Virus record (IMG/VR): IMGVR_UViG_2579778804_000012
Span: 1 to 10,544 of that record
DNA from: a virus
Taxonomy: Duplodnaviria > Heunggongvirae > Uroviricota > Caudoviricetes
Direction: 5' to 3' (one strand)
DNA: 10,544 nucleotides
Every line of letters begins with the position of its first letter. The first letter of the stretch is position 1. A program made the position numbers and the translations under genes. The notes under the pieces were generated by a model that was not told the origin of the DNA, made no database searches, and saw only the letters and a list, made by a program, of their open reading frames with translations. Below, in pieces: positions 1-9,235 of the stretch.

Positions 1-1218
1 ATGAACAAACTGAGCGATACCTTGCTAAGGAAACTTCATGGTAAGCCAGCGGAGAAAAACACGTTTTATAGCGATGGCGGAAATCTGAGCGTGAAATATT
101 TAACATCAGGGAAATTAACCTGGTATTTCACTTACAGGGCAGGAACGGGAAGAGAGACACGACCGGAACGTATTAAGCTGGGAAATTATCCTGATCTGAG
201 CCTGAAAGCAGCCAGGGAAAAAGCCGCCCAGTGTCGCGCATGGCTGGCGGAGGGGAAAAATCCACGCCATGAGATGAATTACGCCGTACAGGAAGCGTTA
301 AAGCCGGTAACGGTTGGCGATGCGCTCACCTACTGGCTTGAGTCGTACGTAAAGGAAAACCGCGTGGATTATATCGCCCTGAAAAGGCGACTTAATAATC
401 ACGTAATACAGTACATTGGCGCTATGCCGCTGGATAAATGCGAGCTACGGCACTGGCTGGCCTGTTTTGACCAGGTGGCAAAGCGAACACCTGTTACTGC
501 CGGATTCGTGCTACAGACATGCAAGCAGGCGCTTAAGTTCTGCCGGAGGCGGCGCTTTGCAATCAGCAACGTTCTCGATGATCTGAACGTGGCGGACGTT
601 GGGAAAAAACCGGATATAAGCGAACGTGTCTTAAGCACCAAAGAACTGGGCGAGTTATTGCAGGCGCTGGATAAAAAAATATTTTCTCCTTACTACGTCG
701 CGTTAATCCGCCTCCTGATTGTCTTCGGAGCCAGGACGGTAGAACTGAGGTTATCGGAGATCAGCGAGTGGGATTTTACCGAAATGCTATGGACCGTTCC
801 GAAGGAGCACAGCAAAACGAAGGTTGCAATATTCCGGCCCATACCGGAAGCGATCCTGCCGTTCGTCACGCGGCTGGTGGACCAGAACAGGCACACGGGC
901 TTATTACTGGGGGAAGTGAAACAGGAGGCTAGCGTATCGCAGTACGGCAGATTAGCGCACAGGAGGCTAAAACACCCTCAATGGTCATTGCATGACATCC
1001 GGCGCACCTTTACAACCATGCTGAACGATTTAGGCGTTGATCCTCACGTCGTGGAGCAGCTTACAGGCCACCAGATGCCAGGAATGCAACGCGTGTACAA
1101 CCATTCCCGCTATATTGATGCGAAACGCAATGCGCTTGATATGTGGGTGGAGCGGTTGGAGATACTGGCGGGAACACATGAAAACGTAACCACGCTACCA
1201 GTAACCAGAATAAAATAA
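1..1218 (+). CDS. int: tyrosine integrase, P4-type (N-terminal arm-binding-like domain plus catalytic domain)
   Basis: 405-aa ORF. N-terminus LSDTLLRKL..GKPAEK..YSDGGNLSVKY..W.F.YR...LGNYPDLSLKAAREKA matches the P4-family integrase N-terminal pattern; C-terminus HDIRRTF....GHQMPGMQRVYNHSRY fits the H-x-x-R and catalytic Tyr region. Window begins exactly at its ATG. Confidence 0.9.
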   Translation: MNKLSDTLLRKLHGKPAEKNTFYSDGGNLSVKYLTSGKLTWYFTYRAGTGRETRPERIKLGNYPDLSLKAAREKAAQCRAWLAEGKNPRHEMNYAVQEALKPVTVGDALTYWLESYVKENRVDYIALKRRLNNHVIQYIGAMPLDKCELRHWLACFDQVAKRTPVTAGFVLQTCKQALKFCRRRRFAISNVLDDLNVADVGKKPDISERVLSTKELGELLQALDKKIFSPYYVALIRLLIVFGARTVELRLSEISEWDFTEMLWTVPKEHSKTKVAIFRPIPEAILPFVTRLVDQNRHTGLLLGEVKQEASVSQYGRLAHRRLKHPQWSLHDIRRTFTTMLNDLGVDPHVVEQLTGHQMPGMQRVYNHSRYIDAKRNALDMWVERLEILAGTHENVTTLPVTRIK

Positions 1219-1592: not shown

Positions 1593-1781
1593 GTGTTAAG
1601 CACTGATCGGTTTATACGTGAAAAAGAATGCGAAAAGCTAACAGGCCTTAGCCGCTCATGCCGCTACCGCCTGGAAAAGGCCGGACAATTCCCATCACGT
1701 CGTAAACTTGGTGGGCGTTCTGTTGGCTGGTCTTTATCTGAGGTTTTGGCCTGGAAGGATAGCTGCAAGGCAGTTCACTAA
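1593..1781 (+). CDS. alpA: AlpA-family transcriptional regulator / possible excisionase (GTG start)
   Basis: 62-aa ORF; LTGLSRSCRYRLEKAGQFPSRRKLGGRSVGWSLSEVLAWK matches the AlpA signature (TG.SR...Y......FP..RKLG.RSVGW...E...W). RBS AAGGGGG at 1581-1587. Confidence 0.8.
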   Translation: MLSTDRFIREKECEKLTGLSRSCRYRLEKAGQFPSRRKLGGRSVGWSLSEVLAWKDSCKAVH

Positions 1782-2285: not shown

Positions 2286-2465
2286 TTATTCTTTGGGTTC
2301 AATACCGCGTTGCTGTAATTCTTTTCGGATTATTCGTTTTATCCAAGCTGCTAAAGAGTCATCACCGTCTTGTTGTTGTGCTTTTTCCATCTTTTCCCGT
2401 AAGTCAGGATCTAAACGGAACTGGAAAGGAGGATTACCACGCCTTTCATTTTTGTGTGTTGACAC
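2286..2465 (-). CDS. Arc/MetJ-type ribbon-helix-helix DNA-binding protein candidate (59 aa from GTG; 34 aa if ATG at 2390)
   Basis: Minus-strand translation ..RRGNPPFQFRLDPDLREKMEKAQQQDGDDSLAAWIKRIIRKELQQRGIEPKE fits the Arc-like strand-helix-helix pattern; RBS GGGGTG 8 nt upstream of the GTG. Absent from the supplied ORF track (non-ATG start, under 60 aa). Confidence 0.45.
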   Translation of the reverse strand: MSTHKNERRGNPPFQFRLDPDLREKMEKAQQQDGDDSLAAWIKRIIRKELQQRGIEPKE

Positions 2466-2486
2466 GTCAATTACACCCCATATAAT
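2459..2486 (+). promoter_or_regulatory. consensus sigma70-type promoter: TTGACA (2459-2464), 16-bp spacer, TATAAT (2481-2486)
   Basis: Both hexamers are perfect consensus with near-optimal spacing; it overlaps the start region of the minus-strand Arc-like gene. Confidence 0.55.
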
Positions 2487-2492
2487 GTGTTT

Positions 2493-2508
2493 ATGTGTAT
2501 ATACACAT
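2493..2508. promoter_or_regulatory. perfect 16-bp palindrome ATGTGTATATACACAT immediately downstream of the -10; candidate operator
   Basis: Self-complementary 16-mer read directly, at about +1 to +20 of the promoter above. Confidence 0.5.
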
Positions 2509-2530
2509 TACACACAACTAGCACAAAAAA

Positions 2531-2599
2531 CAACGCCCCGCAGTGATGGGAACACATACGGGGCGTCTAACCAAACCATTAATTGAGGTAACGATTATG
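2531..2599. ncRNA. structured element copy 1: 7-bp GC stem CGCCCCG/CGGGGCG with 18-nt loop, conserved tail TCTAACCAAACC, RBS and ATG GCT; leader RNA on plus strand and/or terminator on minus strand
   Basis: Stem 2534-2540/2559-2565. On the minus strand it is followed by TTGTTTTTTGTG (terminator-like). On the plus strand it precedes GAGG, then ATG at 2597. Homologous to 3398-3466. Confidence 0.4.
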
Positions 2600-2685
2600 G
2601 CTATAAAAGAGCATAGCTTACTCTTTATACACACACAAACGCCCCGGAAACGGAATAATCCGTTTCATAGTTCGGTTTTGTGCAC

Positions 2686-2913
2686 TCATCCTGGCGGTCG
2701 GTTTTTGCCGGATTTAAGCCGCCGTGGGTATTTATCGACAAAATCTTCAAGGGCAAATTTTTCTGGTGGCACTAAGCGCGGCGCTGGTGGTGGTATTTTT
2801 GTTCTGGTTAGTTCTTCCTCAAGTCTGGCGCAGGCTTCTGACTGCCTTTGCCGGATGATTTCATCATCTTGCGTTTGCGTGTCTTGTATTGGTGATAGTG
2901 TGTTGTTGGTCAT
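2686..2913 (-). CDS. small acidic/proline-rich protein of unknown function (75 aa), paralog of the 2025..2228 gene
   Basis: Starts MTNN.., contains FALEDFVDKY; preceded by the 43-bp element copy b. Confidence 0.55.
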   Translation of the reverse strand: MTNNTLSPIQDTQTQDDEIIRQRQSEACARLEEELTRTKIPPPAPRLVPPEKFALEDFVDKYPRRLKSGKNRPPG

Positions 2914-2922
2914 GTTACTGCC

Positions 2923-2965
2923 CTGTAAAGCAATGCGCCGGAGTTCCTCACGCCACGGCGCTGAT
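2923..2965. repeat. 43-bp element, copy b (100% identical to 2238-2280)
   Basis: Identical 43-mer between the RHH gene stop (2971) and the downstream gene start (2913). Confidence 0.9.
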
Positions 2966-2970
2966 AGTGA

Positions 2971-3277
2971 TTATTCTGATTCTTTGGCCTTGCGGCGCTG
3001 GAGTTCTTCGCGTGCGATGGCGATAAGTTGCCCGAGTTCTTCCGTAGCTTTAATACCAATTTTTTCCACTTGCGCCAATGCATCGAGAGAAGAAATCAGA
3101 GGATTTTCACTGCTTCCTTCTGCCTGGCGGCGGGCGATCTCCCCGCGCATGGCGGTTACTATGAATCCGGCGTTGCTTTCGCCGTCCAGTTTTACGGATT
3201 CCATGCCATCAAAAGCATCATGTGGGATACGAATTGAAATCTGTTTTGATTTGTCGTTGATAGTGTTTTTTGCCATG
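2971..3277 (-). CDS. ribbon-helix-helix (Arc/CopG-like) DNA-binding protein candidate, 101 aa from the MAKNT start
   Basis: KQISIRIPHDAFDGMESVKLDGESNAGFIVTAMRGEIARRQ fits the RHH pattern. Start moved from the track ATG at 3315 to the ATG at 3277, which sits 6 nt after RBS AGGAGA. C-terminus resembles the Arc-like paralog (IAREELQRRKAKESE vs IRKELQQRGIEPKE). Confidence 0.6.
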
Positions 3278-3298
3278 TGCATTCTCCTAAACAAAAGA

Positions 3299-3376
3299 TG
3301 TGATTCAGTATACACAAAAAAGAATCACAAAAAACACTTGACCTGTGATTCAGTTGAATTTAATTTAAATCACACC
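3299..3376. promoter_or_regulatory. operator-like cluster: TGTGATTCAGT direct repeats (3299-3309, 3344-3354) plus inverted half-sites GAATCACA (3322-3329) and AATCACAC (3368-3375); weak candidate promoter TTGACC at 3338-3343
   Basis: Repeated motif in both orientations in the divergent region between the RHH gene and the Icd-like gene. Confidence 0.4.
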
Positions 3377-3397
3377 TCAGTAAGAGGATGTAAACGA

Positions 3398-3463
3398 CAA
3401 CGCCCCGAACTGTTTGCGGCAGTAGCGGGGCGTCTAACCAAACCGTTAACAGGAGTAACGATT
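3398..3463 (+). ncRNA. structured leader copy 2: stem CGCCCCG/CGGGGCG (3401-3407/3426-3432), 18-nt loop, tail TCTAACCAAACC, RBS AGGAG, then ATG GCT; candidate c4/CI-like regulatory RNA or 5'-UTR element
   Basis: Same stem, tail and RBS/start block as copy 1 but a different loop; no U-run on the minus strand, so a plus-strand role is favoured here. Confidence 0.4.
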
Positions 3464-3664
3464 ATGGCTGGAACACAGCATACCCCACGTCTGGCGCACA
3501 CACAAACTGCCTTTGTGTGGCGTTTTCTGGCCCTGAGTGCCGGAGAATCTCAAATCATCCACGTAACCGCCTGGACGGAACGCGAAGCGCGTAACCGTTG
3601 CCCGTCCGGTTGTGTTGCTGTATTCGCTGCCCGTATTCGCCAGGGGGAAACCTATGCACAATAA
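3464..3664 (+). CDS. small protein (66 aa) in the position of Icd-like (host cell division inhibitor-like) proteins of P4-type elements; identity tentative
   Basis: MAGTQHTPRLAHTQTAFVWRFLALSAGESQ...; good RBS; follows the structured leader. The first 15 aa are homologous to the truncated start at 2597 (MAIKEHSLLFIHTQT). Confidence 0.5.
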   Translation: MAGTQHTPRLAHTQTAFVWRFLALSAGESQIIHVTAWTEREARNRCPSGCVAVFAARIRQGETYAQ

Positions 3665-3884
3665 AACCACACCGGACGCAGCAGAAGAAGCAATGCAAAT
3701 ACTGATACGTGCGCTCGTTGATGTTACCCACATGGTGGAGAGCATGGAGAGAAAATCACAGTCGGAGCACGACAAAAGAAAACTTAAAACAATAAAAATA
3801 ATTGCCAAAAACTCGCTGATAAAAGTTACAGACATCCTTAATGAGGACATTAAAAGAATAAGGGAGAAAATTTGTGATGCATAA
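3654..3884 (+). CDS. hypothetical small protein (76 aa), AT-rich gene
   Basis: ATG at 3654 with RBS AGGGGG 6 nt upstream; overlaps the Icd-like stop; lysine-rich, low GC. Confidence 0.5.
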   Translation: MHNKTTPDAAEEAMQILIRALVDVTHMVESMERKSQSEHDKRKLKTIKIIAKNSLIKVTDILNEDIKRIREKICDA

Positions 3885-4104
3885 AATCCCTTTTGAAGTA
3901 TTAATCCACTCTGAAAACGCATTAATTAAAGCACGCGAAATGAATGCGTTGTTAATTAAATTAATTGAAGTGCCGGAAGGTGGTGAAGAATCAGGTGTAT
4001 TAATGTTTGCAGCCATTCAGACATTACTATCGCCTGTTATTGATGAACTGGATAAGGCAATGGCAATTCACGAGAATAATAACTCGCCCCACACCGGAGA
4101 ATAA
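3874..4104 (+). CDS. hypothetical small protein (about 75 aa), AT-rich gene
   Basis: GTG 3874 / ATG 3877 after RBS AAGGGAG; start overlaps the stop of the previous gene. Confidence 0.5.
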   Translation: MMHKIPFEVLIHSENALIKAREMNALLIKLIEVPEGGEESGVLMFAAIQTLLSPVIDELDKAMAIHENNNSPHTGE

Positions 4105-4109
4105 AAATA

Positions 4110-4409
4110 ATGAAACTTAAATATTCTGGCTTAACTGCCAGTGGCAACACTCACCCTAAATTTACGCGCGGTGATATTTACCGCGACCAGTACGGCGGCA
4201 CGGTAATGATTAAGGGCGTGGCGGGACGGTGCGTAACTTACCGCCGTGAAGGTTACGAATATGATTGCGTGATGCCTGTTTATCAGTTCCGGCGTGATTT
4301 TTCTCTGGTACAGACCGCGCCGCATAACGTGCCCACCAGCAACGCCAGGGCACGGGCAAACATCCAGAAGCTGAAAACCATGATTAACGGATTCAGGGGT
4401 AAAAAATGA
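4110..4409 (+). CDS. hypothetical protein (99 aa), translationally coupled to the helicase gene
   Basis: RBS GGAGA 9 nt upstream; its stop overlaps the helicase ATG (ATGA). Confidence 0.6.
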   Translation: MKLKYSGLTASGNTHPKFTRGDIYRDQYGGTVMIKGVAGRCVTYRREGYEYDCVMPVYQFRRDFSLVQTAPHNVPTSNARARANIQKLKTMINGFRGKK

Positions 4410-5815
4410 AACTGGCACCGAACGTAAAACTATTACCGAAAGACAAATACACCGATGCGATTATTTTTGCGGGTATTGATGCTCACTCATTCGCAGAGCA
4501 TTACATCATTGCACAGGCCAAAAAAGCAGGCGATCCAGTCCCTCCCGTTTATCTGGGGCGTTATCAGTTAAGCGAACTGGATAACCTCCAGATTGTTGAT
4601 GATGGGCGATACAGGGCGACGGTGATACGCGCCGGAAATATTGAAGAGCCGCAGCTGTTAACCATCGCCACGAAACTGGCGATCGCCGGAGTCCAGGAGG
4701 CGCGGCTACTTTCTGAAAATTTCGAATTGCTGGAGGAATGGAGCGACCAGCTTCCACGGCTTAGGGAGGCATGGGAACGCGGGGAAAGCCTGGTCATGAA
4801 AAAAATCCCCCAGCGAAAAACCACGCTACCGATGAGCGTTGGATCTACCGGATACGACACACAGCTTGATTACGTGGTAAAGGGGATTATTCCGGCATCG
4901 TCGCTTTGCAGCATATACGGGGCGAGCGGTTCCTATAAATCATTCCTTGCCGGATCGTGGGCGTGTCACGTTTCCACGGGCCGCCAGTGGGGAGGCCGCA
5001 GGGTGGCGCATGGCGCTGTTCTCTATGTGGTTGGTGAAGGCGGTATCGGCGTTCCGCGTCGTGTAAAAGCCTGGGAGGTTGTGCACGGTGAGCAGGTGAA
5101 AAATCTGTATCTGGTAAACCGTCCCATCTTTCCGGCGGTCCCGCTTGATGTTGATGAAATGGTTATCGCTGCCCGTCAGGTGGAGCGGGAAACGGGTAAA
5201 CCTGTACGCATGATTATTCTGGATACGCTGGCGCGTTGCTTTGGTGGGAATGATGAAAATGATTCCCGTGATATGGGGGCGTTTATCCGTGGTTGTGACG
5301 AACTGAAACGACGCACAGGGGCCACGGTGCTGGTGGTTCACCATTCCGGCAAGGATGAGACGAAAGGCGCGCGCGGTTCCAGTGCATTTCGTGCATCACT
5401 GGATGCTGAATACCGGATACGCAGGGAGGACGCAGGAAGCGAAGCGCTGGTTATCTCATGCACCAAAATGAAGGACGCGGAGGAACTCAAAGAAGCCGCA
5501 TATGACTTACGCGTGGTGGAGCTGTTTACCGACGCTGACGGGGAGTTAATCACGTCGCTGGTGGTGGTGGATAAGCCGCGCCCTCCCGTTGAACTGGAAC
5601 GCATCGAGGAGGCAGGCAACAAGACGGAAAACCATACCGCACTATGGGGGTGCATCCGTTCACGCACACAGAACGGCGACAAGTGCACGATCCCGCTGTT
5701 ACGTGATGACATGAAACGGCTTGGGTATGACGTGAAAAATATGCGGCGATGGTTAGCCAAACTGGAAAAAGACGCCGTGATTTACATTGATGGTGATGAT
5801 GTAGGACCACTGTAA
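4406..5815 (+). CDS. RepA-like replicative helicase / RecA-fold AAA ATPase with C-terminal DNA-binding region
   Basis: 469 aa; Walker A GASGSYKS, Walker B-like VRMIILDTLAR, then VLVVHHSGKD; an iteron array lies immediately downstream. Confidence 0.85.
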   Translation: MKLAPNVKLLPKDKYTDAIIFAGIDAHSFAEHYIIAQAKKAGDPVPPVYLGRYQLSELDNLQIVDDGRYRATVIRAGNIEEPQLLTIATKLAIAGVQEARLLSENFELLEEWSDQLPRLREAWERGESLVMKKIPQRKTTLPMSVGSTGYDTQLDYVVKGIIPASSLCSIYGASGSYKSFLAGSWACHVSTGRQWGGRRVAHGAVLYVVGEGGIGVPRRVKAWEVVHGEQVKNLYLVNRPIFPAVPLDVDEMVIAARQVERETGKPVRMIILDTLARCFGGNDENDSRDMGAFIRGCDELKRRTGATVLVVHHSGKDETKGARGSSAFRASLDAEYRIRREDAGSEALVISCTKMKDAEELKEAAYDLRVVELFTDADGELITSLVVVDKPRPPVELERIEEAGNKTENHTALWGCIRSRTQNGDKCTIPLLRDDMKRLGYDVKNMRRWLAKLEKDAVIYIDGDDVGPL

Positions 5816-7154: not shown

Positions 7155-7349
7155 ATGCCAGAGAACAACACCAGAAAGCCGGATAAAAGTGCCACGGTAC
7201 ACATAGACGCCGGAACTATGGAGAAGATCGAACGCTATCAGCAGTTCATCAAAGATAATCACCCGGGTATGCCAGTGCCCACGAAAGGACAAATCACACG
7301 CAGCGCGGTTGAATACTGGTACAGGGCAACGTTAGGAGCCTGGCTATGA
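7155..7349 (+). CDS. small protein (64 aa), possible RHH-type regulator, translationally coupled to the capsid gene
   Basis: ATG 7155 is 7 nt after RBS GGAGG (the track ORF starts earlier at 7122); its stop overlaps the ATG at 7346. Confidence 0.5.
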   Translation: MPENNTRKPDKSATVHIDAGTMEKIERYQQFIKDNHPGMPVPTKGQITRSAVEYWYRATLGAWL

Positions 7350-9235
7350 AAACATGGTTTTCCATTAAGGCTATGGCAGATGTTGTACATGTGCGCATTT
7401 ATGACGAGATCGGCGGGTACGGTGTAAAGGCATCGGCACTTACTGACGAGATCAACGCGTGCGGTAATGTGTCTGAAATCCATCTGAGCATTCATTCACC
7501 TGGTGGCGACATCTTTGAAGGGCTGGCTATCTATAACGCTCTGAAAAATCATCCGGCAAAAAAAATCGTACACATTGAAGGCATGGCGGCTTCTATGGCG
7601 TCGTTTATTGCCATGTGTGGAGATCACATCGTTATGCCTGAAAACGCGATGATGATGATACATGCCCCCCGTGGTGTTACTGCCGGAGTGTCGGGCGACG
7701 TTCGCCGCTTTGCTGATCTGATGGACAAGCTGGGCGACACGATGGCAGAAACCTATGCCGGAAGAACGGGCAGGAGCAAACAGGAGATCACCTCCATGAT
7801 GGAGGCGGAAACCTGGATGGATGGCAATGAGTGTAAGGCTAACGGCTTCGCAGATGAGGTTATACCCGCGATTACAGCAATGGCCCGAATTGAATCAAAA
7901 CGAATCGGAGATTTTTCAAATATGCCGGAAAAAATTAAAAGCATGATCAGCCAGAAAACTGGCAGTGGCGAACAGGAACGACTTAACGGAATCCGTGAAT
8001 TGTTTGGCACCTTCAACGGAAGATATAACGACCTGGCTATAAGTTGTCTTGCGGATTCAGAATGTAGCGTTGAGAATGCACGCGAACGCCTTTTACTCGC
8101 TATGGGTAAAGAATCAACGCCAACAAACAAAACCACCCCCGCAAATCTTTACTACGCGTACACGGATAACGGCAATATAACCGGCGATGCCATGCGTCAG
8201 GGGCTTAATGCGCGTCTTGGTCACGAACGGGCCGAACGCGGTAATCCTTACGCCATGATGAGCCTTTTCGATATGGCACAGGCATCATTAACCCATCGTG
8301 GTATAAGCACGGGCAGCTACAGCACACGCTCGCAGATAGTAAACGCGGCATTCACCCACAGCAGCAGCGATTTTACCGATATCCTTGCTGGTGGCGCTGA
8401 AAAATCAGTGCTTGCAGGCTGGGAGCACAGCGGCGAAACATTCCGCCAGTGGACGAAAAAAGGTTCCCTTTCAAACTTCCGGGAAGCCCGCCGCGTTGGT
8501 ATGAATGGCTTCTCAACGTTAAACAAAGTGCCGGAAGGGGCAGAATATAAATACATCACCACCAGCGATCGCGGTGAACCCATCGCGCTGGCTACTTACG
8601 GGAATATTTTCAGCATTACCCGCCAGGCGATAATCAATGATGACCTTGATCAGTTATCAACGGTGCCAATGGCTATGGGCCGTGCAGCATCAAGAACGGT
8701 GGGAAATCTGGTTAATCTGGTGCTTACAGGCAACGTAAAACTTTCTGACGGAATAGCGCTGTTTGACAAAAAACACAGCAACCTGATTGAAGCAGGACTG
8801 ACAACACCGGGACTTAGTGCAGCACGTCACCTGATGCGCACACAGAAGGACAAAAATGGCGAAGTGCTGAATATTGCGCCTAAATTCCTTTTAGTTCCGG
8901 CAGCACTGGAAGATCGCGCGTTGCAGATGATTAACTCAACCGCACCTTTCGGGGCTGATAAAAACAGCGGGATCTTTAACCCGTATCACAAGCTACTTGA
9001 TATCATCGTCGATCCCCGCCTTGATGATATCAGCGAAAAACAATGGTACATGCTTTCCGCACAGGGAACGGACACAATCGAGGTGGCTTATCTTGATGGC
9101 AATGACGAACCTTACCTTGAACAGCAGGAAGGCTTTATCGTTGACGGCGTGGCCTGGAAAGTCCGTATTGATGCAGGTGTGGCAGCTCTGGATTATCGCG
9201 GTATGGTCAAATCAGGCGGTACCGATTCACTATGA
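7346..9235 (+). CDS. prohead protease (ClpP/S14-like) fused to a probable major capsid protein, with a scaffold-like linker
   Basis: 629 aa; N-terminal 170 aa IHSPGGDIFEGLAIYNALKNH...HIEGMAASMASFIAMCGDHIVMPENAMMMIHAP matches the phage ClpP-like head-maturation protease pattern; the C-terminal ~400 aa is inferred to be capsid from size and context, not from a recognised motif. Confidence 0.75.
   Translation: MKTWFSIKAMADVVHVRIYDEIGGYGVKASALTDEINACGNVSEIHLSIHSPGGDIFEGLAIYNALKNHPAKKIVHIEGMAASMASFIAMCGDHIVMPENAMMMIHAPRGVTAGVSGDVRRFADLMDKLGDTMAETYAGRTGRSKQEITSMMEAETWMDGNECKANGFADEVIPAITAMARIESKRIGDFSNMPEKIKSMISQKTGSGEQERLNGIRELFGTFNGRYNDLAISCLADSECSVENARERLLLAMGKESTPTNKTTPANLYYAYTDNGNITGDAMRQGLNARLGHERAERGNPYAMMSLFDMAQASLTHRGISTGSYSTRSQIVNAAFTHSSSDFTDILAGGAEKSVLAGWEHSGETFRQWTKKGSLSNFREARRVGMNGFSTLNKVPEGAEYKYITTSDRGEPIALATYGNIFSITRQAIINDDLDQLSTVPMAMGRAASRTVGNLVNLVLTGNVKLSDGIALFDKKHSNLIEAGLTTPGLSAARHLMRTQKDKNGEVLNIAPKFLLVPAALEDRALQMINSTAPFGADKNSGIFNPYHKLLDIIVDPRLDDISEKQWYMLSAQGTDTIEVAYLDGNDEPYLEQQEGFIVDGVAWKVRIDAGVAALDYRGMVKSGGTDSL

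Follow-up and report, generated by a model that had tools for sequence, protein, structure and literature searches.

Paired GC hairpins at Icd-like translation starts are most likely parts of two minus-strand small RNA genes antisense to the icd start

The window analyzed here is the whole stretch of 10,544 nucleotides. The genomic context is a PICI-like phage satellite, in which int, alpA, a divergent Arc-like gene, a predicted RNA lying over icd, DUF4222, and a RepA-family helicase follow one another in this order (cf. Table 1). The Icd-like ORF at 3464-3664 scored 64.9 bits with the NCBIfam phage_ICD_like model, in agreement with the RefSeq annotation, and the operon that it opens contains overlapping stop and start codons at 3654/3664, 3877/3884, and 4406/4409. 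Seven of eight diverse downstream ORFs that we sampled reached the cut-off of the same model (25 bits), the eighth (L052) scoring 20 bits, while the conserved N-terminal 12 codons fall outside the phage_ICD_like domain. In 83 of 106 related loci, the same strand carries the helicase further downstream, the median distance being +1.1 kb. Upstream, the gene at 2286..2465 also scored 20 bits with NCBIfam YlcI_YnfO_N, which is under the cut-off, and the promoter and palindrome between 2459 and 2510 are the probable operator and source of a sense leader-1 transcript. At copy 1, icd homology stops after 2641, the frame, of 355 codons, staying open as far as 3664, and no family match was found for its extension past the icd homology; a 24-codon stub was considered for this ORF and ruled out, the TAG being out of frame. 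The long plus-strand ORFs 1834-2586 and 2597-3463 had no family match either, and both are probably shadow ORFs.

A repeat finder run on the whole window returned a 116-nt repeat (2525-2640 versus 3392-3507, 72% identity, spacing 867 nt), and the likeness of its two copies is far beyond chance. An earlier note on this DNA had described in both copies a GC stem, a conserved tail, a ribosome-binding site, and an ATGGCT block, and all of them were found where it had placed them. It had regarded the 18 nt between the stem arms as a free loop of different sequence, but an inner helix, GTG/CAC in copy 1 and ACTG/CAGT in copy 2, lies within this stretch and shows covariation throughout the family. 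A second helix is built from the tail, the ribosome-binding site, and ATGGCT, and only on the minus strand does it close properly.

Table 1. Features of the locus, with positions given in the window.
Feature	Position	Strand	Details
Arc-like/YlcI-YnfO-type small gene, module 1	2286..2465	minus, divergent	PHROG 228 Arc-like repressor, E = 1.5e-6
Sigma-70 promoter	2459-2486	plus	TTGACA-16-TATAAT; 12/12 consensus positions
28-bp palindrome (inverted repeat)	2483-2510		follows the sigma-70 promoter
Predicted antisense RNA, copy 1	2524..2603	minus	~80 nt; model R1 92.9 bits; ends inferred
Copy 1 SL1	2602->2568	minus	anti-SD CCUC in loop; pairs over AUG 2597-2599
Copy 1 linker between SL1 and SL2			GGUUAGA
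Copy 1 SL2	2567->2532	minus	GC hairpin of the earlier note
Copy 1 U-tract	2530->2525	minus	
Predicted antisense RNA, copy 2	3391..3470	minus	~80 nt; model R1 93.6 bits; ends inferred
Copy 2 SL1	3469->3435	minus	anti-SD CUCC in loop; pairs over AUG 3464-3466
Copy 2 SL2	3434->3399	minus	tail UUGUCGUUUA
Stem arm CGCCCCG	2534-2540 (copy 1); 3401-3407 (copy 2)		
18-nt intervening stretch	2541-2558 (copy 1); 3408-3425 (copy 2)		
Stem arm CGGGGCG	2559-2565 (copy 1); 3426-3432 (copy 2)		
Tail	2566-2577 (copy 1); 3433-3444 (copy 2)		TCTAACCAAACC
Ribosome-binding site	2585-2588 (copy 1); 3452-3455 (copy 2)		GAGG (copy 1); GGAG (copy 2)
ATGGCT, first base	2597 (copy 1); 3464 (copy 2)		
Copy-1 target	2585..2671	plus	SD GAGG 2585-2588, AUG 2597, icd-like 5' end (MAIKEHSLLFIHTQT)
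Candidate promoter, antisense RNA 1	2610..2638	minus	-10 TATGCT (complement of 2610-2615), 17-nt spacer
-35 of candidate promoter 1	complement of 2633-2638	minus	TTGTGT; weak
75-aa hypothetical, module 2	2686-2913	minus	
YlcI/YnfO family protein, module 2	2971-3276	minus	NCBIfam YlcI_YnfO_N 65.7 bits; PHROG 6522 192 bits
Icd-like ORF, copy-2 target	3464-3664	plus	SD GGAG 3452-3455, AUG 3464; opens tightly packed operon
Candidate promoter, antisense RNA 2	3477..3505	minus	-10 TATGCT (complement of 3477-3482), 17-nt spacer
-35 of candidate promoter 2	complement of 3500-3505	minus	TTGTGT; weak
Remainder of controlled operon	3654..5815	plus	two small ORFs, DUF4222 4110-4409, RepA-family helicase 4406-5815

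Both hairpins are most likely parts of minus-strand small RNA genes that lie antisense to the icd start. The minus strand folds into two stem-loops in either copy (-33.5 kcal/mol, z = -5.2, in copy 1 and -32.3 kcal/mol in copy 2), and the predicted RNA is complementary to the Shine-Dalgarno (SD) sequence and AUG of the Icd-like ORF in both. Outside the two copies, the best score in the window with model R1, a covariance model built from relatives, did not exceed 11.7 bits with filters off. On the minus strand, a T-rich tract comes directly behind SL2, which would therefore serve as the terminator of the antisense RNA, though the U-tract is interrupted in many family members, including copy 2 (UUGUCGUUU). 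From these features we infer transcription of the RNA and the positions of its ends, and each copy is probably the gene for a cis-encoded antisense RNA (countertranscript) of about 75 to 80 nt on the minus strand.

More than 100 distinct relatives were collected by two pattern scans of viral contigs, the patterns fixing part of the conserved sequence (the tail in the first scan, the ORF start in the second), and 102 of them were aligned. In the minus orientation, RNAalifold gave a two-helix consensus of 25 pairs, with compensatory changes in 13 of them, and 97.3% of the alignment cells were paired in this structure. None of 500 shuffles matched the observed value on any of five measures, and when the 3' partner was slid along the alignment, at most 50.5% of cells were paired and the covariation score stayed at or below 0.071 (versus 0.266 observed). 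Behind SL2, TTT at columns 92-94 is conserved in 85 to 90% of the sequences, the flanks further out being unrelated, and, within the 10 nt past the hairpin, T occurs on average 5.2 times on the minus strand as against 1.1 times on the plus strand. A search of genome contigs for related loci with a single Icd protein query yielded 2 loci, and a search of a phage collection gave 4 short matches, P1 and P4 not being among them. Of 5426 complete E. coli genomes, 1012 had matches to the 141-nt region, which in some genomes is annotated with nothing but questionable CDS calls. No Rfam family matched anywhere in the window at gathering thresholds, and at E ≤ 10 over 2400-3700 there were chance-level matches only, except for a lead to R1162; Rfam 15 does not contain the family, which current genome annotation therefore misses.

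The hexamer TATGCT sits where the -10 box of the antisense RNA would be expected, which points to a promoter inside the Icd-like ORF. It occupies ORF positions +14..+19 in 44 of 45 distinct relatives that had been collected without regard to it; at this site CAA and CAC, though synonymous, do not occur, while codons 3-4 and Pro11 are free to vary; TATGAT stands at the same position in O157 and TAGGCT in IncQ. The candidate -35 elements (TGTAAA, TATAAA, and TTGTGT) share just 3 of their 6 positions with the consensus. A simple promoter and terminator scan called neither the antisense promoters nor the hairpins, the latter because the loop limit of the scan is 8 nt.

We consider it unlikely that the hairpins are intrinsic terminators only, with the rest of the element conserved as the icd translation-initiation region and no regulatory RNA involved. 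The GC stem with its T-rich tract on the minus strand makes copy 1 a good terminator, as the earlier note had correctly seen (hairpin then UUGUUUUUUG), and this copy lies downstream of the convergent YlcI/YnfO operon, so placed that a transcript of the minus-strand genes of module 2 (2686..3276) would enter the copy-1 hairpin and end there. However, an upstream minus-strand gene is present at copy 1 only; copy 2 and most relatives lack one, and all their genes further downstream are read from the plus strand. In addition, SL1 over the SD and AUG covaries too and keeps G·U pairs that are workable on the minus strand only, and the TATGCT box is conserved at the nucleotide level. The dual use of the terminators suggested earlier was thus half right, in that the hairpin would end the antisense RNA itself and, in copy 1, probably also terminates the convergent YlcI/YnfO operon.

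The structure might instead work in the sense mRNA, as a stabilizing 5'-UTR hairpin or as a protein or RNase III operator for icd translation; both copies lie within predicted 5' leaders, and the core GC stem is Watson-Crick on either strand, so that the mRNA can form it. We regard this as quite unlikely in view of the strand asymmetry of the alignment. Read on the minus strand, the 102 sequences contain 383 G·U cells versus 2 A·C cells, counts that overstate the number of independent events because many of the aligned sequences are closely related (distinct G·U pair types numbered 22 versus 2), and each minus-strand G·U change is an A·C mismatch on the plus strand. The minus strand folded better in all 102 sequences (mean -33.3 versus -24.0 kcal/mol on the plus strand), and the consensus energy was -30.9 kcal/mol on the minus strand but near zero (-3.5 kcal/mol, with 9 pairs and 37 A·C cells) on the plus strand. 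The conserved two-stem-loop RNA folds on the minus strand only.

The earlier note had likened the element to the c4 RNA of P1 and P7 and the CI RNA of P4, processed leader RNAs that act by base pairing; on such a reading, an RNA cut from the sense leader would pair through its loops with separate sites near the icd ribosome-binding site of the same transcript. This reading is largely refuted, and we hold it to be very improbable, despite several points of likeness. The RNA precedes an Icd-like gene, as c4 does in P1, and the P1 icd translation start (GTTAGTGAGGCCGTAACTATGG) is similar to the start found here, the target being therefore homologous. The same target family is shared with c4 of the P1/P7 immI operon (RF01695, in clan CL00128 with c4-a1b1) and CI of P4, P1 Icd matching phage_ICD_like as the ORF here does; the b' loop of P1 c4 (UCACUAAC) resembles the SL1 loop, with a similar translation start targeted; and the position over the SD and AUG of a phage_ICD_like ORF fits, by position only, the icd ribosome-binding site as the place of c4 action. 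The P1 record annotates occlusion of this site by c4, which is the same outcome as proposed here. However, a covariance scan with the Rfam models C4, c4-a1b1, and isrK found nothing in the window, even at E ≤ 10 over 2400-3700, a C4 match at the gathering score (45 bits) being likewise absent, yet the same models detected the c4 region of P1, the positive control, with 68.8, 51, and 35 bits, respectively. The window differs in this from P4 and from Gram-negative PICIs, in which CI/seqA relatives are detected by Rfam C4 and isrK (PMC10111431). Conversely, model R1 found nothing at the P1 icd region, its best score in the P1 locus (100 kb) being 14.9 bits with filters off, so neither the Rfam models nor model R1 reveal a similarity between c4/CI and the RNA described here. 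While c4 and CI are sense-strand RNAs, processed from a leader and directed at short separate sites, the conserved fold here is on the opposite strand, the plus-strand consensus barely folding. Downstream complements to the tail, which the earlier note had proposed to search for, were found nowhere in the window beyond the two copies themselves, and there are therefore no separate a2/b2-type target sites. What was upheld, by structure and position, is the broader idea of a regulatory RNA with a base-pairing logic at the icd start, whose effect would be that outlined below.

IncQ-type replicons use hairpin ssi signals, and G·T wobbles, being tolerated in DNA, would stabilize a minus-strand DNA hairpin as well. 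Nevertheless, a fold in minus-strand single-stranded DNA, for instance as a priming or initiation signal for RepA-type replication, is hardly credible, given the exact overlap with the SD and AUG, the anti-SD loop, the -10 box, and the T-tract, none of which serves an ssi site, and given that the corresponding element of IncQ plasmids is known to act as an RNA (PMC8136791).

For the antisense RNA, we propose the following mechanism. Transcription would start 6 to 8 nt inside the Icd-like ORF, directed by the TATGCT box in codons 5-7, read back over the AUG and then the SD, and end at the U-rich tract past SL2, giving an RNA with two stem-loops in which the loop of SL1 would display the anti-SD and SL2 would be the GC hairpin. 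Since this RNA is fully complementary to the leader, we infer that it pairs with the icd translation-initiation region, the first contact probably being one between loops, since mirror hairpins can form in the mRNA. The calculated duplex energies ranged from -157 to -166 kcal/mol for cognate pairs and were still strong (-94 to -100 kcal/mol) for non-cognate ones. Pairing would block 30S binding at icd and lower the expression of DUF4222 and the RepA-family helicase through the overlapping stop and start codons, possibly also by polarity, and the satellite would be kept quiet, or its copy number limited, until sense transcription outruns the antisense RNA. Copy 1 probably belongs to an upstream regulatory module that was left behind when a second module, comprising the 75-aa gene, the YlcI/YnfO gene, promoter, RNA, and icd 5' end, joined at the conserved leader.

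Among known RNAs, the predicted one comes closest to the IncQ plasmid countertranscript RepX of R1162/RSF1010 (Rfam RF00043, Plasmid_R1162), an experimentally characterized 75-nt antisense RNA with two stem-loops that represses repA-repC and sets plasmid copy number, and that has been described as FinP-like and as a FinO ligand (PMC8136791). On an IncQ1 plasmid, the IncQ plasmids having been located via the Rfam consensus sequence, model R1 gave a weak but full-length match (25.1 bits, E = 1.6e-6 over 847 nt, E-values being rough) lying exactly on the RepX/R1162 RNA over the repA SD and AUG, as against a background of at most 14.9 bits in 100 kb of P1. In the opposite direction, RF00043 scored 18.1 bits (E = 3.1) at 2531-2604 of the window, which is below its gathering score of 55 bits, as compared with 98.5 bits on a genuine IncQ plasmid. 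The two models thus match each other weakly, at exactly corresponding sites, but the two elements have a common arrangement.

In the current view, a helper phage induces Gram-negative PICIs by way of AlpA, and to our knowledge they have no described repressor that would correspond to Stl of the staphylococcal islands. The PICI literature examined does not mention antisense or small-RNA control, the titles and abstracts returned by a search on PICIs and antisense RNA contained nothing relevant, and neither did the literature found with the motif sequences or with Icd-like and antisense as terms. We tentatively suggest, as a possibility rather than an expectation, that the RNA is an undescribed RepX-like quiescence or copy-control repressor of many Gram-negative PICI and capsid-forming PICI satellites, inherited together with the RepA-type replication module. 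As such a repressor, it would sort satellites that share a host into immunity or incompatibility groups through its variable loops, namely the flanks of the SL1 loop and the apex of SL2, and it may depend on a ProQ/FinO-type chaperone. In tandem arrangements like the present one, the upstream copy would then provide a second repressor dose, or else its sense leader, with its strong promoter, might titrate the RNA as a decoy. More generally, a conserved antisense RNA on the first gene of the replication operon would give satellites a post-transcriptional brake of the plasmid type, link their replication modules to IncQ plasmids, and mean that the icd translation start has come under RNA control in two different ways, by c4 in P1 and by a cis countertranscript here.

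Among other known systems, FinP of F-like plasmids is likewise a two-stem-loop antisense RNA over a ribosome-binding site, though no Rfam FinP match was found over 2400-3700 at E ≤ 10. In the immI region of P22 (arc, ant, sar), a short cis-antisense RNA, sar, covers the site of ribosome binding in an early or anti-repressor gene, and Arc-type ribbon-helix-helix repressors are encoded there too; the target of sar is ant, however, and its host element a full temperate phage. RepX differs in that its direct target is repA, while the target here is an Icd-like ORF with the helicase 1.1 kb further on; in that it belongs to a plasmid and not to an integrated PICI-like phage satellite; and in that it largely lacks the U-rich tract that follows SL2 here, and the helicases of the two systems have only one motif region in common (37 bits). 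Nonetheless, RepX and the predicted RNA share the following features: (i) a cis-antisense position over the ribosome-binding site and start codon, in RepX those of the first replication gene; (ii) two stem-loops with a GGUUAG linker, loop 1 containing CCUCC as the anti-SD and AGCCAU lying across the AUG; (iii) a single-stranded 3' tail and a short GUUA-containing linker, both found here; (iv) a -10-like hexamer at positions +14..+19 of the target ORF (TAGGCT versus TATGCT here); and (v) a RepA-family helicase within the controlled operon.

Both repeat copies, with the GC hairpin, tail, ribosome-binding site and ATGGCT block listed in an earlier note on this DNA, were found where that note had placed them, and together they make up a direct repeat of 116 nt, with 72% identity and a spacing of 867 nt. 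The hairpin had been described there as having an 18-nt loop; an inner helix was found within this loop, so that the stem is in fact longer and imperfect (11-13 bp) and closes a loop of some 7 nt. To collect relatives, viral contigs were scanned for two exact patterns, taken from the tail and from the ORF start respectively, and more than 100 distinct members were obtained in total; the patterns themselves fixed part of the conserved sequence, and the members include many close relatives. They diverge widely in the promoter regions upstream and in the Icd-like sequences downstream; the conserved block begins with the hairpin and reaches about codon 10. Within it, the hairpin stem varies by paired substitution (CGCCCCG/CGGGGCG, CGCCTCG/CGAGGCG, GCCCGG/CCGGGC, GTCCCG/CGGGAC and GGCCTGA/TCAGGCC).

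RNAalifold analysis of 102 distinct sequences, aligned in minus orientation, revealed two helices, SL1 and SL2. In SL1, the complement of ATGGCT and of the sequence just 5' of the ATG is paired with that of the tail, which leaves an anti-Shine-Dalgarno CCUC or CUCC exposed in the loop; SL2 is the hairpin of the earlier note. Compensatory changes occurred in 13 of 25 pairs and 97.3% of cells were paired, values reached by none of 500 shuffles, and the signal collapsed when the 3' partners were slid. The alignment contained 383 G·U cells versus 2 A·C cells, the latter being those that would be G·U pairs on the plus strand. Furthermore, the minus-strand fold was more stable in all 102 sequences, with a consensus energy of -30.9 kcal/mol versus -3.5 kcal/mol for the plus strand. 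This asymmetry and the fold energies indicate that the selected structure is a minus-strand molecule, antisense to the icd leader. A covariance model built from the relatives (R1) matched the window at exactly the two copies. The fold, strand, position, conservation and context of the RNA are matters of observation.

We infer the transcription and ends of the RNA from the adjoining sequence. The minus strand 3' of SL2 reads G-Y-Y-N-UUU, the TTT being retained in 85-90% of members and the sequence beyond it being unrelated, and the plus strand has about one T in the 10 nt past the hairpin. A minus-strand TATGCT lies at ORF positions +14 to +19 in 44 of 45 members chosen without selection on that region. 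Gln5 is invariably CAG and His6 invariably CAT, with synonymous codons never used, and there is free variation at codons 3-4 and use of all four codons for Pro11. The codons of the box are outside the Icd domain model, and an O157 relative has TATGAT at the same position within a different peptide. Initiation 6-8 nt downstream of TATGCT would coincide with the base of SL1 and give an RNA of about 80 nt. The antisense promoter stays a prediction, since the -35 candidates are weak.

A stretch identical to the window is present in the chromosome of E. coli 89-3156 (NZ_CP027366.1), where it is a 10.5-kb island inserted in tqsA, with a pseudogene fragment on either side (L001, this locus, 4608-5513 and 16102-16245). 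With int and alpA at its left end, the layout is that of a Gram-negative phage satellite of the phage-inducible chromosomal island (PICI) type. Stop and start codons overlap between the genes of the plus-strand operon, and the gene divergent from each repeat copy belongs to the Arc-like/YlcI-YnfO type. An O157:H7 island has the same gene order plus PerC and capsid genes, as in capsid-forming PICIs. A ClpP-like prohead protease/major capsid fusion (NCBIfam, 889 bits) is encoded in the window, and no portal, terminase or head-completion genes are annotated inside the island, which may be a reduced relative of capsid-forming PICIs.

Features of the island and of related loci (window coordinates unless a locus is named)
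Feature	Position	Strand	Placement
Tyrosine integrase	1-1218		first gene in island order
AlpA	1593-1781		after integrase
250-codon ORF	1834-2586	plus	
Two small genes	2025-2228, 2286-2465	minus	after AlpA, before copy 1
Sigma-70 promoter and near-palindrome	2459-2510		facing copy 1
Repeat copy 1	2525-2640		
355-codon frame	2597-3664	plus	from copy-1 ATG
Two further genes	2686-2913, 2971-3276	minus	between copies 1 and 2
Direct repeats TGTGATTCAGT	3299-3309, 3344-3354		before copy 2
Repeat copy 2	3392-3507		
Icd-like	3464-3664	plus	first operon gene after copy 2
Two small ORFs, then DUF4222		plus	operon, between Icd-like and helicase
RepA-family helicase	4406-5815	plus	same operon
SSB			after plus-strand operon
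Prohead protease/major capsid fusion	7346-9235		after SSB
Variant ash or Icd-like ORF	L216 2676-3233		
Variant ash or Icd-like ORF	L213 5319-5912		
Variant ash or Icd-like ORF	L051 1604-2261		

Two RNA copies, 600-870 nt apart, were also found in eight other viral contigs, and in six of these the upstream copy is of the window's MAIKEHS type. The one examined in detail (L051) has the order of the window: Arc-like gene, RNA, 75-aa gene, YlcI-like gene, RNA, icd. Homology between the window's copies stops directly past CACACACAAAC, and two loci (L031 and L089) are chimeric: their upstream region and hairpin are those of copy 2, their SL1, ribosome-binding site and ORF those of copy 1, and the switch falls within the invariant GGGGCGTCTAACCAAACC. 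These observations point to the conserved RNA region as a recombination crossover point at which regulatory modules are exchanged or stacked. Copy 1 faces the oncoming minus-strand YlcI/YnfO operon, and its hairpin, which has the best U-tract, is probably the terminator of the operon transcript as well as of the antisense RNA. Since long identical stretches are kept, cross-pairing of the two RNAs is possible.

The promoter facing copy 1 is a perfect consensus (TTGACA-16 nt-TATAAT), directly followed by a 28-bp near-palindrome, TAATGTGTTTATGTGTATATACACATTA, that looks like a candidate operator for the divergent Arc-like protein. The stretch separating copy 2 from the YlcI/YnfO gene (3299-3379) contains the direct repeats and inverted AATCACA motifs, which are likely operator sites. 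The top candidate for a copy-2 plus-strand promoter, TTGACC at 3338-3343, has a poor -10 and is a low-confidence placement. The copy-1 frame continues in frame into the Icd-like ORF (867 = 3 x 289), overlaps two well-supported minus-strand genes in antisense and also passes across a promoter region. Its 187-nt intergenic part is stop-free in just 1.6% of shuffles, and a family search on the extension gave no match. The ORF starting at the corresponding ATG is open for 205-252 codons in six related tandem loci, through sequence which past about 405 nt cannot be aligned to the window. The 250-codon ORF shadows the two upstream minus-strand genes, and both long plus-strand ORFs are probably shadow ORFs. 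In some relatives an "ash family" ORF (Pfam Phage_ASH) takes the place of a short Icd at the RNA-overlapped ATG; PHROG 29966 combines Ash and Icd in a 188-aa protein. Some loci have two consecutive Icd-like ORFs, and in O157 a 594-nt "Icd-like pseudogene" is annotated by PGAP over a stretch resembling the window's minus-strand Arc-like genes.

As for function, we infer repression: the countertranscript would pair with the icd translation-initiation region and thereby block ribosome binding. Expression of the downstream replication genes should fall too, because the operon genes overlap stop to start. In the phage P1 record, icd is annotated as "apparently required for expression of ant".

The c4/CI-type RNA proposed in the earlier note was not borne out. 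No Rfam family matched the window at gathering thresholds, and no C4, c4-a1b1 or isrK match was found at E <= 10 over 2400-3700; the same search of the P1 immI region, as positive control, gave c4 at 68.8 bits, c4-a1b1 at 51 bits and isrK at 35 bits. The absence of C4 and isrK is informative, since these models detect P4 CI/seqA relatives in Gram-negative PICIs (PMC10111431). Complements of the conserved tail, suggested as target sites, were present at the two copies alone. R1 had no match at the icd region of P1, and its top score over 100 kb of P1 with filters off was 14.9 bits. Of the eight sampled target ORFs, seven reached the NCBIfam phage_ICD_like cut-off, as did P1 Icd, and the eighth (at L052) scored 20 bits versus a cut-off of 25. 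The icd translation start of P1 is similar to that of the window. At this start (P1 locus L212, 48440-48475), GTTAGTGA followed by GG, including the annotated c4 target b2, resembles the satellite leader CGTTAGTTGAGG...ATGG. The satellite RNA has its target in common with c4 and is a different regulator; the two RNAs appear to have converged on homologous target sequence.

The sole Rfam lead was RF00043, the R1162-like plasmid antisense RNA, at a sub-threshold 18.1 bits, which places the satellite RNA below the threshold for membership. RepX, the countertranscript of these IncQ plasmids, is a 75-nt antisense RNA of two stem-loops that spans the repA-repC start codon together with the ribosome-binding site, reduces plasmid copy number and is bound by FinO (PMC8136791). 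On an IncQ1 plasmid, R1 gave a full-length match (25.1 bits, E = 1.6e-6 in 847 nt, E-values being rough) on the strand opposite repA, over the repA Shine-Dalgarno sequence and AUG; RF00043 scores 98.5 bits at the same site. RF00043, although named an antisense RNA, matches the repA-encoding strand of IncQ1 plasmid pSTMDT12_S (L214 373-447), whereas published RepX is antisense to repA with a GUUA linker (PMC8136791), and this linker occurs at L214 only on the strand opposite the RF00043 match; this suggests that the Rfam model is kept in mRNA-sense orientation. RepX and the satellite RNA both place AGCCAU over the AUG and CCUCC in loop 1, and both have the GGUUAG linker and a GC hairpin; in each case a -10-like hexamer lies at +14 to +19. 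In 83 of 106 satellite loci, a RepA-family helicase gene lies downstream in the same orientation (median distance 1.1 kb), and the helicase has one motif region in common with IncQ RepA. The sequence-level link is weak; in our reading, the satellite RNA is distantly related to RepX or, at the least, closely analogous to it.
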